Shown: positions 2,912 to 9,432, counted from the stretch's first letter. The stretch is DNA of 29,663 nt from Candidatus Hodarchaeota archaeon (GCA_048887225.1 JBHLJY010000027.1:1-29663), one strand, 5' to 3'. Made by a program: numbers and translations. The notes: generated by a model from the letters alone, not told the origin.

Positions 2912-3556
2912 ATGACGTTAGAGGATGATTTGAAAGAAGCCATCTTAGAATGGGATGAGGACGGTTTAAGGGATTTATGTAACACTTCAATGCAAAATAA
3001 AAAAAAAACACCAGCAGAATTGCTAAAAATAATAGGAGATGTTATGCGATATATTGGAGAATTATTTGAAAAAGAAGAAATTTTTCTGCCTGATTTGATT
3101 GGCTCAGCTGAGACTGTCAAAACTATAATAGATGGGATATTAGATCCTGCAATAAGAGCATCAGGCGAAAAGAAAGAAACTCGTGGTAAAGTAGTGATAG
3201 GCACTGTTGAGAGTGATGTTCACAGTATTGGAAAAGATCTAGTGGCATCTTTCCTTTTTTCTAATGGATATGAAGTATATAACTTAGGTGTTGAGGTACC
3301 CGCCTTAAAATTTATTGAAAAGGCTGAAGAAGTAGAAGCTCAAGTTATTGCTATGTCATCACTTCTAACTATGTCGATGGATTTCCAAAGAGAATTAATA
3401 GCAGAATTAGAAAAACAAGGTTTACGTAATAAATATAAAGTAATTGTAGGGGGCAGCCCTACTTCAGAAGATTGGTCTGAACAAATTGGAGCCGATGGTT
3501 GGGCAGACGATGCCATTGAGGCTGTCAATCTTGTAAATAAAATACTTTCTAAATAA
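2912..3556 (+). CDS. Corrinoid (B12-binding) methyl-acceptor protein, MttC/MtbC-like
   Basis: 214 aa with an N-terminal cap domain (IFLPDLIGSAE), the DxHxxG motif (GTVESDVHSIGKDLV), SSLLT, KVIVGG and IGADGWADDA. Confidence 0.95.
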   Translation: MTLEDDLKEAILEWDEDGLRDLCNTSMQNKKKTPAELLKIIGDVMRYIGELFEKEEIFLPDLIGSAETVKTIIDGILDPAIRASGEKKETRGKVVIGTVESDVHSIGKDLVASFLFSNGYEVYNLGVEVPALKFIEKAEEVEAQVIAMSSLLTMSMDFQRELIAELEKQGLRNKYKVIVGGSPTSEDWSEQIGADGWADDAIEAVNLVNKILSK

Positions 3557-3578: not shown

Positions 3579-5105
3579 ATGAAAATGAAAAATATTGAAT
3601 TTCTCTCTAAAGATGAAATCGAAAATATTCATTCAGCAACTTTAGAATTATTGTCAACCGTAGGCATTAAAATAGATGATGAAGAAGTTCGAACCCTTTT
3701 CAGCGAAAATGGTGCAGAAGTAGAACACGATACGAATTTTGTTAGAATTCCTGAAGATCTAATAAAGCAACAATTAAAAACTGTTCCAAATTCATTTAAA
3801 CTATACGGACGTGATGGGTCATTTAATTTTGAAGTAAACACCTATAGTACTAAATTCGCAACAATAGGTACGCCAGTGAAAATGTATGACCCAAATCATA
3901 AAAAGGGGATAAGAAAAACCACATTAGAAGACAATATTAAACAAATCCGGGTAGTGGATAGTTTAGAACATATTAATAATTCGCATGTTGATGTCTGGCC
4001 TGGCGATATTAAATTTACTACTGTGCATGTACATTGTATCTATCAGTGGGCCAAAAATACACGTAAACCATATGGACTCGGTTGTTTAGGCAAGATTGCG
4101 AGCCAAGATATGATAGATATGATGTCAATTATTGTCGGGGGTGATGATGAATTAATTAAAAATCCTCGCTTGGTAGGATTTATGAATCCAACTAGTCCAT
4201 TGCATCTACCTAAAATCATGACAAATGGCTTTAAAATATTTAATAAATATAAACAACCAGTAATAATCGCTCCAGAGGCACTTGCAGGTACTTCTGCTCC
4301 AGTTACCTTAGCAGGATTATTAACTCAGACAAACGCAGAAATCTTAGCAAGCGTGATTTTATCGCAGTTAAATAATCCGGGAGCGCCTGTATTTTTTGCT
4401 ACAGTCTCTCATGTAACTGATATGCGCTCAGGAAATGATGCCTTAGGAGGTGTTGAGACGGGACTCATTACGGCAGGGATTGCTCAGTTAGCACGATTTT
4501 ATAATATTCCTTCAAGAGGACCAGGAGGAGTTACTGATTCAAAATGTTTTGACCTTCAAAACGGTTTTGAGCGATATCAAACATTGATGTTGGCAGCACA
4601 AGCAGGAATAAATTACATTACGTGTGCTGGGACTTATGAAGCTACTTTATTAGAAGCACTTGAACTTCTTGTATTAGATGATGAATTAGCAGGAATGGTA
4701 TTAAGAGCACTTGAAGGTATTAATGTAAATGAAGACACTATAGGATTGGGAGTCATTAAAAAAATCGCGACAAGCACTAAAAAGGGCGTAACTTTCCTTG
4801 GAGAAAAGCACACACGTGAGTATATGAGAAAAGAATTATATATACCAAAACTCGTTAATAGATATAGACGAAGTACTTGGCGCAAGAAGGGATCTAAAGA
4901 TATCATCGCCGTAGCAACGGAAAAAGTAGAAGAAATCCTTAGAAATTTTACCGAATATGAGTTGCCAGCAGAAATAGATGCAAAATTAAAAGCTTTGATA
5001 AAAAAAGTGGATGAAAGAACCTTTGATTTCTACAAAAAAGCAGAAGGTATAACTGCTGATAGCATTACCATTGATAGCATTGAATTTAAAGGAGAAAATA
5101 GTTAA
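3579..5105 (+). CDS. MttB-superfamily corrinoid methyltransferase, non-pyrrolysine type (paralog of 1294..2811)
   Basis: 508 aa, preceded by SD AGGAGG. It shares long identical blocks with the first copy (APVTLAGLL, QLARFYNIPSRGPG, KCFDLQNGFER, AGINYITCAGTYE) and has Val at the Pyl position. Confidence 0.93.
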   Translation: MKMKNIEFLSKDEIENIHSATLELLSTVGIKIDDEEVRTLFSENGAEVEHDTNFVRIPEDLIKQQLKTVPNSFKLYGRDGSFNFEVNTYSTKFATIGTPVKMYDPNHKKGIRKTTLEDNIKQIRVVDSLEHINNSHVDVWPGDIKFTTVHVHCIYQWAKNTRKPYGLGCLGKIASQDMIDMMSIIVGGDDELIKNPRLVGFMNPTSPLHLPKIMTNGFKIFNKYKQPVIIAPEALAGTSAPVTLAGLLTQTNAEILASVILSQLNNPGAPVFFATVSHVTDMRSGNDALGGVETGLITAGIAQLARFYNIPSRGPGGVTDSKCFDLQNGFERYQTLMLAAQAGINYITCAGTYEATLLEALELLVLDDELAGMVLRALEGINVNEDTIGLGVIKKIATSTKKGVTFLGEKHTREYMRKELYIPKLVNRYRRSTWRKKGSKDIIAVATEKVEEILRNFTEYELPAEIDAKLKALIKKVDERTFDFYKKAEGITADSITIDSIEFKGENS

Positions 5106-5400: not shown

Positions 5401-5415
5401 AAAAAATTGAAAAAA
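5401..5415 (-). terminator. Possible archaeal oligo-T terminator after the SECIS
   Basis: The minus strand reads TTTTTTCAATTTTTT at the 3' end of the SECIS hairpin. Confidence 0.35.
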
Positions 5416-5484
5416 CCCAGTACCGTTGCGAGGCAGTCATCGGGCGTCTCATTTTTTTACGCACGATTCATTCTTTTCTGGATT
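5414..5484 (-). promoter_or_regulatory. SECIS-like element (eukaryote/Asgard type) in the 3' UTR of the selenoprotein gene
   Basis: Minus-strand RNA: AAUCCAG aaaaga AUGAA UCGUGCGU AAAAAAAUGAG ACGCCCGA UGAC ugccucgcaacggua CUGGGUU. It has a 7-bp helix I, an AUGA.../..GA tandem-GA core, an 8-position helix II (7 pairs plus one U-C mismatch) and an A-rich apical loop. It starts 5 nt after the stop of a gene with an in-frame TGA and is a GC-rich island in AT-rich DNA. Confidence 0.82.
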
Positions 5485-5489
5485 TAAAG

Positions 5490-6008
5490 CTATAATTTTT
5501 TTTCGATTGCATCGATTAATGATTCTATTGGAGGTCTATCTTCTTTATTTCCTATATATTGCCACACAACGATTCCCTCCTTATTAATTAGGAATTTAGA
5601 TGGAATTGCGTGGTTTACCTGAAATTGATCGTGGTCAGGATGTTCTTCCGTTAAATATACATTATAGGATTTTGTAATCTTAGCACCTCGATCTGCTATA
5701 AATTGAAAAGGAATTTCATATCTCTCATGCAATATTTTTAATTTTCTTGGACTATCAACAGCGATTGAAATTAATTTTACATCGCGCTTTTCCAATTCAT
5801 TAAAATTTGGTATTAAAACACTCTTAAAATGTTTTTTACAATGCGCTCACCAATTTCCCCTAAAAAAGTCTATTAACACTCCTCTATGATTTTTAAGTAA
5901 ATTTGATAGACTTATTTCGTTTTTATCGATGTCTAAAGTTTCAAAATTTGGTGCTTTAGTTCCTATTGTGAGTCCCTTTTTTGGAGTTGAAATATGTTCT
6001 TCGGTCAT
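5490..6008 (-). CDS. Peroxiredoxin-like (AhpC/TSA, thioredoxin-fold) selenoprotein with a UxxC motif, 172 aa
   Basis: The ORF-track entry 5490..5795 is only the C-terminal part. The frame extends to ATG 6008 through a single TGA (5849..5847, codon 54): MTEEHISTPKKGLTIGTKAPNFETLDID...VLIDFFRGNW-U-AHCKKH. The TGA occupies the first Cys position of the FxRGxWCxxC redox motif, and the N-terminus (LTIGTKAPNF) is typical of AhpC/TSA proteins. Confidence 0.92.
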
Positions 6009-6949: not shown

Positions 6950-8101
6950 ATGAGTTTGCGAAATGATCCGTTTCTTAATATTTCTAATTCAATTATGAAT
7001 CCCTACATTGAGGATTGGCAGAATAACAATAAAAAAGTAATTGGTTTTTATTGTACATATATCCCAGAAGAACTATTACATGCAGCCAATTTTCTTACTT
7101 TTAGAATTAGAGCAACTGGACATAAAGCCACTGATTTAGCTGATATTTATATGGTACGCTTTACTTGTTCGTTTGTCAGAGCTACTTTAGATCTGGCATT
7201 AAAAGGTAATTACGATTTTTTAGATAGCCTTTTGATATGCAATTCTTGTGATCATTCTCGTCGTATGTTTGAATTATTCGATTTAAAAATTTTTAAAAGA
7301 GAAGGCTTTGAAAAGGATGTTCCCAAATTTTATGTAGCCATGCCTCATATTGTGTCAAATGAAGGATTTGATTGGTATCAAAACGAGATTAAGGAATTGA
7401 AAGAAGAATTAGAAAAAAGTTATATTAGTAATAAAATAACTAATGAAGATTTGATTAATTCAATAGAAATTTACAATAAAAATAGAAGTTTGTTGAGAGA
7501 ACTCCACGAATTAAGGATTCAAAATATACCCAAAATTACTGGAAGTGAAGCCTTACAAATATCTATGGCAAATAGCTCGGTTCCAAAAGATATTGCAAAT
7601 CAAGAATTAAATCGAATTCTAGATTTGTTAAAAGACAGCGAAGGAATAAAAACAAATGCAAAAAGAATTATGCTCGTTGGAAGTGAAGTAGACGACACAG
7701 AATTTACTAAATTAGTTGAAGATTCTGGTGCTTTCATAGTTTCTGATTTCTTATGTTTTGGAACTCGAAATTTTTTAGATGATGTAAAGTTAAAAAATGG
7801 AGAAAATCCTTTAGAAAGCATATGTAAGCGCTTATATTATAGGATTTCTTGTCCTAGAATGATGGATGATCACCCAAGACGATTGGATTTTCTAAAAAAA
7901 GAAATCAAGAGAGCAAAAATAGATGGGGTCATTCTACAGAGAATTAATAATTGCGATTTATCTGGATGTGAAAATATGTATTTAGAACATGAATTTAAAG
8001 AATTAGATATACCGGCTCTCAATGTTGATCGAGAATTTTATCAAGCAGATACTACTAGATTACAAACTAGAATCGAGGCTTTCTTGGAAATGATCTCGTA
8101 G
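6950..8101 (+). CDS. 2-hydroxyacyl-CoA dehydratase/benzoyl-CoA reductase family subunit (HgdB/FldC/BcrC-like), copy 1
   Basis: 383 aa with YCTYIPEELLHAA, CSF, CDHSRR, SCPRM, CD and the C-terminal TRIEAFLEM (HGD-D family). Confidence 0.9.
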   Translation: MSLRNDPFLNISNSIMNPYIEDWQNNNKKVIGFYCTYIPEELLHAANFLTFRIRATGHKATDLADIYMVRFTCSFVRATLDLALKGNYDFLDSLLICNSCDHSRRMFELFDLKIFKREGFEKDVPKFYVAMPHIVSNEGFDWYQNEIKELKEELEKSYISNKITNEDLINSIEIYNKNRSLLRELHELRIQNIPKITGSEALQISMANSSVPKDIANQELNRILDLLKDSEGIKTNAKRIMLVGSEVDDTEFTKLVEDSGAFIVSDFLCFGTRNFLDDVKLKNGENPLESICKRLYYRISCPRMMDDHPRRLDFLKKEIKRAKIDGVILQRINNCDLSGCENMYLEHEFKELDIPALNVDREFYQADTTRLQTRIEAFLEMIS

Positions 8102-8142: not shown

Positions 8143-9432
8143 TTGGTAAATAGAAATGAAATGGAAAATAGAATAATTCCTTATAAAATGATTTTGGATG
8201 CTTTAACCACTACTAATAAAGTAGTTAAACTAATCCTTCCGGAACATGGAATTCCCTCGTTAAGAATTGGTACAGAAAAAATTATATCTGTTTTAGAAAG
8301 AAATTTCGAAAAGGCAAGAGAAGGGCTTCCCGTGATTGCATATCATTTTGCATTTCCAGGAGAATATCTAGAATGCTTCGATTGCATCCCTGTATGTATG
8401 GAAGGCGTTTCATTTTTCTTGGGTGCATTAATATTACATGGTGTAGAAAAATATTATGACTTAATAGGGAACTGGGGACATCCGTTTCACACCTGTTCTG
8501 CACAAAAAGGACCTATGGGAATGTGTCTCGATGATTTATTTAAATTTGATGCTATCATTACCCCAACTGCTCCATGCGATAGTACATGTGCATCATATCC
8601 ATTTTTCAAATTAAAAGAAAGATTTCCAGTTATTATTGCGGACTTACCATTTCATAAAAGTGAAAAAGGTTACAATTATTATGCTGAACAAATCAAACTT
8701 AGTTTATTTGAGCTTGGAAAAACGATTGGCCAAGAACCAGACTTTAATAAATTAAAAGAGGCCATAGAAATAGAAAATCAAGTTTCAAAATTAAGGCTTG
8801 AATTGTTTGAACTAATAAAAGCAACCCCTAGTCCCATTGAAAATATGTTTAATCCTGTTTCGGCAGGAACGAGTATTTTTATACCGGGAACATCTGAAAA
8901 CGTCGAATTTTACAAAGAGATGTTGGATATCACAAAAAAAAGATATAATAATAAAGAACATTACGGTGGTGAAGAAAAAATTAGATCTATATGGCCTTAT
9001 ATGTTAACCTTTTTCGATATTTCTTTATGTGAATGGTTAGACCGAGAATTAGGTATGAGCATACTTTTTGATATTTTTAACTATAATTTTTCAGAACCCA
9101 TAGATACGAAATCTGATTTAGATACGATGTTTTATGGCATGGCAAAAAGAGGGATGGGTTGGCCGATGGTAAAACAATCTACTGAATTTTACTATCCTTT
9201 CTTAGAGGATTGTGTAAGGATGGCAAAAGATTTTAGTGCTGATTGCTTTATTTACACTCAAAGTTTGGCTTGTAAGCAGTTTGGATCCGTTCCGCAACTT
9301 TTAAGAGAAGTACTTATGGACGAAGTAGGAATTCCTATGCTTACTATAGATTTTGATGTAGGAGATGCTAGAATGACTTCTTTAAAAACTTTTAAAGAGA
9401 AATTAAGTATGTTCGTACAAACATTATTATAA
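8143..9432 (+). CDS. 2-hydroxyacyl-CoA dehydratase/benzoyl-CoA reductase family subunit (HgdA/FldB/BcrB-like), copy 1
   Basis: 429 aa with TCSAQKG, PCDS, EKIRSIW, ACKQ and GIPMLTIDFDVGDAR. TTG start follows an SD-like GAAGTGA. Confidence 0.87.
   Translation: MVNRNEMENRIIPYKMILDALTTTNKVVKLILPEHGIPSLRIGTEKIISVLERNFEKAREGLPVIAYHFAFPGEYLECFDCIPVCMEGVSFFLGALILHGVEKYYDLIGNWGHPFHTCSAQKGPMGMCLDDLFKFDAIITPTAPCDSTCASYPFFKLKERFPVIIADLPFHKSEKGYNYYAEQIKLSLFELGKTIGQEPDFNKLKEAIEIENQVSKLRLELFELIKATPSPIENMFNPVSAGTSIFIPGTSENVEFYKEMLDITKKRYNNKEHYGGEEKIRSIWPYMLTFFDISLCEWLDRELGMSILFDIFNYNFSEPIDTKSDLDTMFYGMAKRGMGWPMVKQSTEFYYPFLEDCVRMAKDFSADCFIYTQSLACKQFGSVPQLLREVLMDEVGIPMLTIDFDVGDARMTSLKTFKEKLSMFVQTLL

Follow-up and report, generated by a model that had tools for sequence, protein, structure and literature searches.

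The closest described relatives of the element studied here are the lokiSECIS elements found behind PrxL, VhuU and HdrA-VhuD genes (Mariotti et al. 2016, Mol Biol Evol 33:2441; PMC4989117), a class later named Asgard type I 'eSECIS-like' (Huang, Xiao and Zhang 2024, ISME J; PMC11227280). In the text of PMC4989117 these elements have an AUGA before a stem of 9 bp, an 11-nt loop, a GA after the stem and a position near the stop codon; the first five bases of the loop are mostly A, and its last base is G, usually preceded by A. The same text reports that eukaryotic and other SECIS models miss lokiSECIS, that no SBP2-like gene was found in the published Loki data, that SPS genes carry a distinct type II-like lokiSECIS, and that a methanogen VhuD subset has AUGA and GAC/AAC beside an extra short stem.

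The lower part of the element is mentioned only loosely in this literature. The text of PMC11227280 speaks of an 'internal loop and lower stem' without conserved features, and cites the k-junction paper solely in connection with the GA_AA pairing. Neither PMC4989117 nor PMC11227280 nor a 2026 review describes, in its running text as distinct from figures and supplements, a hairpin that separates core from lower stem, a three-way junction or a G:C closing pair. Full-text literature searches (SECIS three-way junction; SECIS Asgard kink-turn) returned no description of a third arm, which may be drawn in figures.

We analysed a window of 29,663 nt, the whole of contig C27 in an assembly of 3.27 Mb (30% G+C, 98% complete). 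The element on its minus strand, from 5485 to 5413, belongs to the class of lokiSECIS or Asgard type I eSECIS-like elements and is ordinary among them. We conclude that it is very probably the SECIS of the adjacent PrxL gene, of lokiSECIS type and built as a compact three-way junction on a canonical kink-turn.

The PrxL gene and its 3' element

The PrxL reading frame (6008-5490) is a single open frame only when TGA is translated as U, which gives W-U-A-H-C at residues 53-57, and its product matches the Pfam families AhpC-TSA (E=1.5e-23) and Redoxin (1.6e-18). The gene corresponds to the single-Sec PrxL.2 type of Lokiarchaeota described in the text of PMC4989117. A protein search found PrxL homologues in 92 of 161 genomes of the taxonomic class, the full-length ones all with 1-3 in-frame TGA, and about 120 homologues keep the frame open through the TGA, which stands at the redox-box position. 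Sec is probably inserted at UGA54. The AUGA of the element begins 18 nt past the UAG stop.

The neighbouring genes were assigned tentatively by reading their translations. On one side of PrxL, a gene resembling those for B12-binding corrinoid proteins (2912-3556, plus) is flanked by two methyltransferase-like genes of the MttB superfamily (1294-2811, minus; 3579-5105, plus). On the other are two paralogues resembling 2-hydroxyacyl-CoA dehydratase / benzoyl-CoA reductase subunits (6950-8101 and 8143-9432).

Read 5' to 3' as RNA, the element is AAAUCCAG-AAAA-G-A-AUGA-AUCGUGCGU-AAAAAAAUGAG-ACGCCCGAU-GA-C-UGCC-UCGCAAC-GGUA-CUGGGUUU-UUUCAAUUUUUU, and its parts are listed in the table. The bulged strand reads AAAAGA at 5477-5472 and AUGA at 5471-5468, and we assign it as linker AAAA (5477-5474), G5473 (-1b), A5472 (L1), A5471 (L2), U5470 (L3), G5469 (1b) and A5468 (2b); C5436 pairs with G5473 as the closing pair. 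Helix II joins a 5' arm AUCGUGCGU (5467-5459) to a 3' arm ACGCCCGAU (5447-5439) through eight standard pairs and one internal mismatch, U5463.C5443, and carries the apical loop AAAAAAAUGAG (5458-5448). Helix I comprises 8 bp, with A5485-U5413 as its outer pair.

Features of the PrxL gene and its 3' element in the window
Feature	Positions	Strand	Remarks
PrxL selenoprotein gene (putative), peroxiredoxin-like, thioredoxin-fold	5490..6008	minus	172 codons and UAG stop
UGA codon 54, probably read as Sec; first position of UxxC redox box	5847..5849	minus	homologues have TGA at the same position
Helix I 5' arm AAAUCCAG	5478..5485	minus	pairs with 5413-5420; AAUCCAG at 5484-5478
Kink-turn bulged strand (predicted)	5468..5477	minus	AUGA invariant
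Helix II, 9 positions, and 11-nt apical loop	5439..5467	minus	covariation in 9/9 pairs
Kink-turn non-bulged strand (predicted): G5438 (2n), A5437 (1n), C5436 (-1n)	5436..5438	minus	GA or AA invariant here
Third arm (T hairpin): UGCC / loop UCGCAAC / GGUA	5421..5435	minus	conserved place and covariation
Helix I 3' arm CUGGGUUU	5413..5420	minus	no spacer after third arm; CUGGGUU at 5420-5414
U6 runs at 5415-5410 (sharing bases with the end of helix I) and at 5406-5401	5401..5415	minus	sequence read

Each published lokiSECIS feature is present: the position near the stop, AUGA and GA, the 9-position stem, and an 11-nt loop that starts with an A-run and ends in AG. The earlier note had listed an AUGAA...UGAC core, an apical loop containing AAAAAAA and a helix I of AAUCCAG/CUGGGUU, all of which are in place on the minus strand, helix I reaching 8 bp when A5485-U5413 is added. 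Its assignment to a eukaryote-like kink-turn SECIS, not the methanogen GAA_A type, is supported, and the element lies in the 3' UTR of an in-frame-UGA gene. The stem it described as helix II stands, and its count of eight positions is corrected to nine with one U.C mismatch, under an 11-nt loop, the lower count having come from assigning the first A-U pair to the core. Helix II is indeed shorter than in eukaryotes, as that note said; this length is the norm in PMC4989117, and given the published geometry it is thus a hallmark of the class and no peculiarity.

Taken singly, the sequence has no significant fold energy (MFE -16.9 kcal/mol, z = -0.48, with 58 of 200 shuffles folding as well); the evidence is comparative. 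As a pattern, the element is highly significant. A covariance model of the core alone, with 42 positions (R3), gives it 57.3 bits, with a genome-wide E of about 1e-7, and a three-helix model gives it 82.9 bits, the element itself having been in the training set among 21 others. A filters-off covariance-model scan of the 29.7-kb window found no second such element. Rfam, at gathering scores and at E<=10, returned no SECIS family, only noise matches (DnaX, GlsR6, Atu_L1).

Contigs from three sediment or soil metagenomes, 95-99% identical to the locus, depart from it at a few positions within the element. In helix I, the pair U5482.G5416 is C-G in three runs and U-A in one contig. Other changes fall in the apical loop, the third-arm loop, 3b:3n, or the outermost third-arm pair (at U5435, where the change would open it), and AUGA, GA and the inner pairs are untouched. 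In the one RNA run found, the marine-sediment metatranscriptome X20, a single 157-nt contig covers 5478-5634 in the 3' half of the gene; because it ends at the first bases of the element, it is uninformative on transcription of the SECIS and on the 3' end.

Selenocysteine genes of the same genome

Across the assembly, a pattern scan followed by covariance models found 13 such elements, along with one type II-like element and one weak match. They sit behind in-frame-UGA genes: three VhuD/MvhD, one short MvhD-like, two VhuU, SelD, an HdrA-like and an AhpD-like gene, and genes for a small multi-Sec protein, for a small membrane protein containing G-G-G-U-G-C and for a protein in which two Sec are adjacent. 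The SelD of this genome itself contains Sec (L003; G000:C2:203900-205650), and its element at C2:205417-205492 is a plain type I 9/11 element, unlike the type II-like SPS element of Mariotti 2016.

Two elements depart from the common form. The type II-like element (L004:116-196, minus; G000:C3, about 218415-218495) has AUGA and GA on either side of a stem of 7-9 bp, whose loop of 23 nt contains an inner mini-stem; its closing pair is U:A, its third arm UACCU/AGGUA and its helix I AAAUCC/GGAUUU. It lies 10 nt past an ORF (L004:197-1063, minus) of 289 aa and unassigned family, whose sole in-frame TGA is upstream of the first ATG; possibly this ORF is an unlisted selenoprotein with N-terminal Sec, or the element is an orphan. 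Behind the HdrA-like gene with three Sec (U-U and one), an element at L021:1501-1563, minus (G000:C12:40257-40319), has AUGC...AA in place of AUGA...GA, so that 2b:2n would be C.A; its geometry is normal, with a third arm GCCC/GGGC and a helix I UCCGAA/UUCGGA.

Genes for Sec synthesis and decoding are also encoded. SelB (C4:38949-39836, a 482-aa frame) scores 248.6 bits, above the cut-off, and SepSecS (C4:44921-46066) scores 397 bits about 5 kb away on the same contig. The interval G000:C4:38949-46066 forms a small Sec-machinery neighbourhood. A tRNA-Sec was not found in the 98%-complete assembly by ARAGORN, with or without introns, or with RF01852, whose best match had 40.2 bits against a cut-off of 47; a 103-nt candidate was rejected as tRNA-His. 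The genome has two L7Ae-family genes, which we take to be L7Ae and L30e, and no SBP2-like third L7Ae-domain paralogue was seen in it.

Third arm and helix I across the class

Elements for comparison were gathered in two ways that are blind to the flanks, by PrxL protein search and with the core-only model R3, because sequences would otherwise be chosen by the very feature being counted. The 30 PrxL loci from the protein search yielded 36 elements by a core-only pattern, some loci having tandem paralogues, and a third-arm hairpin and helix I were read base by base at the same places in all 36. Their layout is a helix I 5' arm, uAAGA, AUGA, 9 bp, 11 nt, 9 bp, GA, C, the third arm and the helix I 3' arm, with a typical third arm of AACCUU-GCA-AGGGUU and a U-run about 15 nt past the helix I 3' arm.

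The hairpin is also present in 13 elements behind other UGA genes of the same genome (VhuD, VhuU, SelD, HdrA-like, AhpD-like and others). Among the nine elements first found there, a hairpin of 3-6 bp starts 1-4 nt past GA in 9/9, and in the majority the stretch that follows this hairpin pairs with bases 4-6 nt ahead of AUGA. Third-arm stems vary by gene family, with their place fixed: UGCC/GGUA at this locus, and UGCCC/GGGUA, ACCUUU/AAAGGU, AUGGA/UCCAU, AGGAU/AUCCU or UCCCUU/AAGGGA. Both helices are again present in about 27 elements found with R3 behind varied genes in other genomes of the same family (f1), where, for example, UCCCUU/AAGGGA goes with a helix I of CCUCC/GGAGG, AUCCU/AGGAU with AACCCC/GGGGUU, and ACCAU/AUGGU with CCGA/UCGG. 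A few elements (C18, C21a) possess just a weak, AU-rich helix I.

In 82 of 83 distinct elements, the base two positions before AUGA is G and the one directly behind the 3' GA is C, which gives a G:C pair at -1b:-1n; in the remaining one, the VhuD element on C8, this pair is U:A. L2-L3 is A-U, and the order is that of a kink-turn: closing pair, 3-nt loop N-A-U, G.A, A.G and a variable 3b:3n, which is mostly non-Watson-Crick (U.U 22, C.U 9, A.G 7, and others). All 83 are compatible in sequence with a simple kink-turn with a 3-nt bulge, in which the G.A pairs would be sheared. A third helix on the non-bulged strand, 1-4 nt past GA and backed by covariation, reproduces the layout of the k-junction defined in TPP riboswitches (Wang, Daldrop, Huang and Lilley 2014, NAR 42:5322; PMC4005666). 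We regard this three-way, k-junction-like architecture, as far as it can be read from sequence, as a real and general feature of the class, and the structural refinement it brings (third arm, three-way junction) as possibly unpublished.

An alternative is that the core hairpin (AUGA, helix II and GA) is the SECIS by itself, and that the small hairpin and helix I, together with the U-runs, make up another module, one for transcription termination or protection of the mRNA 3' end, the two being neighbours merely through their shared place at the end of the transcript. The U6 runs start inside the helix I 3' arm, U-runs recur within about 10-25 nt past the element in most orthologous PrxL loci, published models find the elements from core, stem and loop only, and R3, itself confined to the core, detects them well. 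The U-runs are a probable archaeal transcription stop. Archaeal termination needs U-runs only, however, and no terminator-like hairpin was called: a scan for bacterial-type hairpin terminators and promoters gave nothing above chance. Moreover, helix I has its 5' arm upstream of the core, where a downstream terminator has no need of it, the G:C closing pair joins both strands exactly at the junction, and the fixed place of the hairpin past GA, with helix I enclosing the kink-turn, describes one shared junction and not two structures in series. We consider a separate module improbable.

Still less probable is an atypical eukaryote-type SECIS peculiar to this locus, with a 15-nt insertion acquired locally. 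Eukaryotic and published Asgard models have no hairpin at this site, and the segment does look like an insert when viewed alone. The earlier note had taken it for an extra 3' insert, able to form a 4-bp mini-hairpin and suggesting a three-way-junction variant. The hairpin and the junction are backed by covariation; the notion of an insert fails, as the hairpin is constant in all the class elements examined, in the same place in the 36 PrxL elements, the 13 behind other genes and the roughly 27 found with R3. The diversity of the flanks also excludes their being misassembled copies of one sequence.

R3, run on 151 genomes sampled evenly across the phylum, matched in 25/25 genomes of family f1 and in 0/125 of other families. 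Further PrxL loci of the family gave an R3 match in 18/18, bringing Sec-type PrxL loci with the core to 48/48; the expectation in the earlier note that AUGA/GA is kept behind TGA-bearing orthologues thus held at all 48 loci of family f1, and the core went undetected behind six homologues from family f3. The companion expectation, that the motif is not equally present behind Cys homologues, was confirmed to the extent that R3 at E<0.01 found no match in 17 loci of the nearest TGA-free AhpC/TSA homologues, from other Asgard families, which at 24-38% identity are distant and not strict orthologues. At E<=1e-10 the protein search detected no PrxL of Cys type in the class, and the data thus do not contain the ideal control. 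A search of the contig collection for the PrxL locus gave one unrelated bacterial match only. Gene content and the match to published elements suggest that the window's relatives are Loki-type Asgard archaea.

The six f3 homologues, from a sister family of the same order, keep 1-2 in-frame TGA and have no AUGA/9/11/GA core detectable by R3 (L088-L093: G021:C1:588700-589600 and 3623000-3623900; G016:C1:339300-340150; G019:C185:38900-39800; G009:C25:2300-3150; G022:C422:4640-5500). RNAfold gives their 3' UTRs a three-way junction, in which helix I is often AUGA.../...UCAU, the main arm has an 11-14-nt A-rich loop and a small hairpin has a GCA-type loop; one of them (L092) can alternatively be read as AUGA...GA with U:A closing. 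Either a SECIS variant whose kink-turn is not clear or a pair of competing folds may be present here.

Covariation was measured in two alignments. In A3, which holds 35 PrxL elements, ungapped, blind to structure and anchored on the core only, the three-helix structure pairs 79.8% of cells against 71.1 +/- 0.9 in shuffles, a value reached by 0/500, and slid partners give at most 51%; because the sequences are kin, these shuffle statistics exaggerate significance. By helix, the paired cells amount to 88% in helix II, 84% in the third arm and only 67% in helix I, the last because linker lengths differ. In A6, with 43 elements fitted to the three-helix model and seven of them from other gene families, paired cells reach 87% in helix I, 89% in helix II and 87% in the third arm, and both sides change in 22/23 pairs (8/8 in helix I, 9/9 in helix II and 5/6 in the third arm). 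A6 scores 0.596 for covariation, where shuffles give 0.228 and slid partners no more than 0.153, a significance that is overstated because the alignment leans to the model and the sequences are kin. Since the CC/GG core of the third arm is nearly constant within PrxL orthologues, covariation in this arm comes mostly from comparison across families on the model-fitted alignment.

Thermodynamic measures were taken with helix II forced. RNAfold then places the MFE structure as a three-way junction in 56/70 elements, and the flanks are more stable than shuffled flanks in 67/70 (mean z -1.72). A permissive parser for a hairpin plus a helix is positive in 89% of real elements and in 33-37% of random or shuffled flanks, a false-positive rate that makes this count weak alone and limits it to descriptive use. 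On PrxL elements outside its training set, the three-helix model scores 45-95 bits. MAFFT on untrimmed elements (A1) misaligned the 3' flank and was not used, and a first model, R1, set the PrxL third arms one base off register (A4), so that its hairpin figures are not relied on. The least credible reading, a chance stem-loop in AT-rich intergenic DNA behind a TGA that is a true stop or a pseudogene lesion, would suit the unremarkable single-sequence energy and the lack of an Rfam match, but it is contradicted by the frame kept across the TGA in the PrxL homologues, by an element conserved with covariation and matching a published class, and by a genome that encodes SelB, SepSecS and SelD.

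Proposed working and relation to known systems

With the element taken as a lokiSECIS-type SECIS, it would mark the PrxL mRNA at its very 3' end, 375 nt past UGA54 as counted to the AUGA, and archaeal SelB/EFSec with Sec-tRNA(Sec) would decode the marked UGA as selenocysteine, with no stop. From the co-occurrence of such elements with UGA genes and their absence behind the 17 Cys-type homologues, we infer that the element drives recoding. The RNA would probably fold in the cell as laid out here, with helix I of 8 bp followed by a 4-nt linker, the closing G:C, a 3-nt bulge A-A-U and tandem G.A/A.G pairs from AUGA and GA. Helix II, with its 9 positions and 11-nt A-rich loop, would come next, and the third hairpin would begin right after GAC and run straight into helix I. 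The third arm may stack on helix I, much as the third helix of the TPP k-junction is coaxial with its C helix, and may stabilise the kink-turn or present it to a binding factor.

A further and tentative proposal, which we hold to be possible without thinking it likely, is that the Asgard SECIS is a k-junction whose third arm, with its G-pyrimidine loop, and kink-turn together dock an archaeal SECIS factor or aSelB, and that eukaryotic SECIS would have lost this arm and kept its remnant as the asymmetric internal loop. If this is true, the third arm would be a concrete bait for the missing archaeal counterpart of SBP2.

These observations concern the recognition of SECIS in archaea and the origin of the eukaryotic SECIS/SBP2 system, for which the elements of Lokiarchaeia are the published 'intermediate'. 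Taken with its roughly 80 relatives, the element shows that the accepted model of core, stem and loop omits two conserved helices and the closing pair. The consequences extend to what should be cloned for reporter and binding assays, to the choice of bait, and to the design of covariance models for Asgard selenoprotein genes.

With eukaryotic SECIS (Rfam SECIS_1, RF00031; form 1), the element shares the 3'-UTR site, the AUGA...GA kink-turn core, unpaired A's that start the apical loop, and a helix I beneath an internal loop. It differs in a helix II of 9 positions, against about 12-15 in eukaryotes, in a conserved hairpin on the 3' side of the 'internal loop', where eukaryotic elements have a plain internal loop, and in a clean 3-nt-bulge kink-turn with a G:C closing pair. 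What it has in common with the methanogen SECIS (eaSECIS, GAA_A type; Methanococcales and Methanopyrus) is being an archaeal 3'-UTR recoding signal; on direct reading of 5413-5485, the GAA_A bulge and the GC-only 3-bp upper stem are absent and the geometry differs. The idea that the third hairpin is a vestigial eaSECIS was rejected, as the hairpin is too small and has no GAA_A bulge.

The likeness to the k-junction of TPP riboswitches (PMC4005666) lies in secondary-structure layout only, and implies neither homology nor common function; unlike that junction, the present class usually has 1-4 unpaired nt between GA and the third helix, and a linker of 3-6 nt between helix I and the closing pair. 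From lokiSECIS the element itself is no different. Only the description differs, the published papers modelling the core, upper stem and apical loop.
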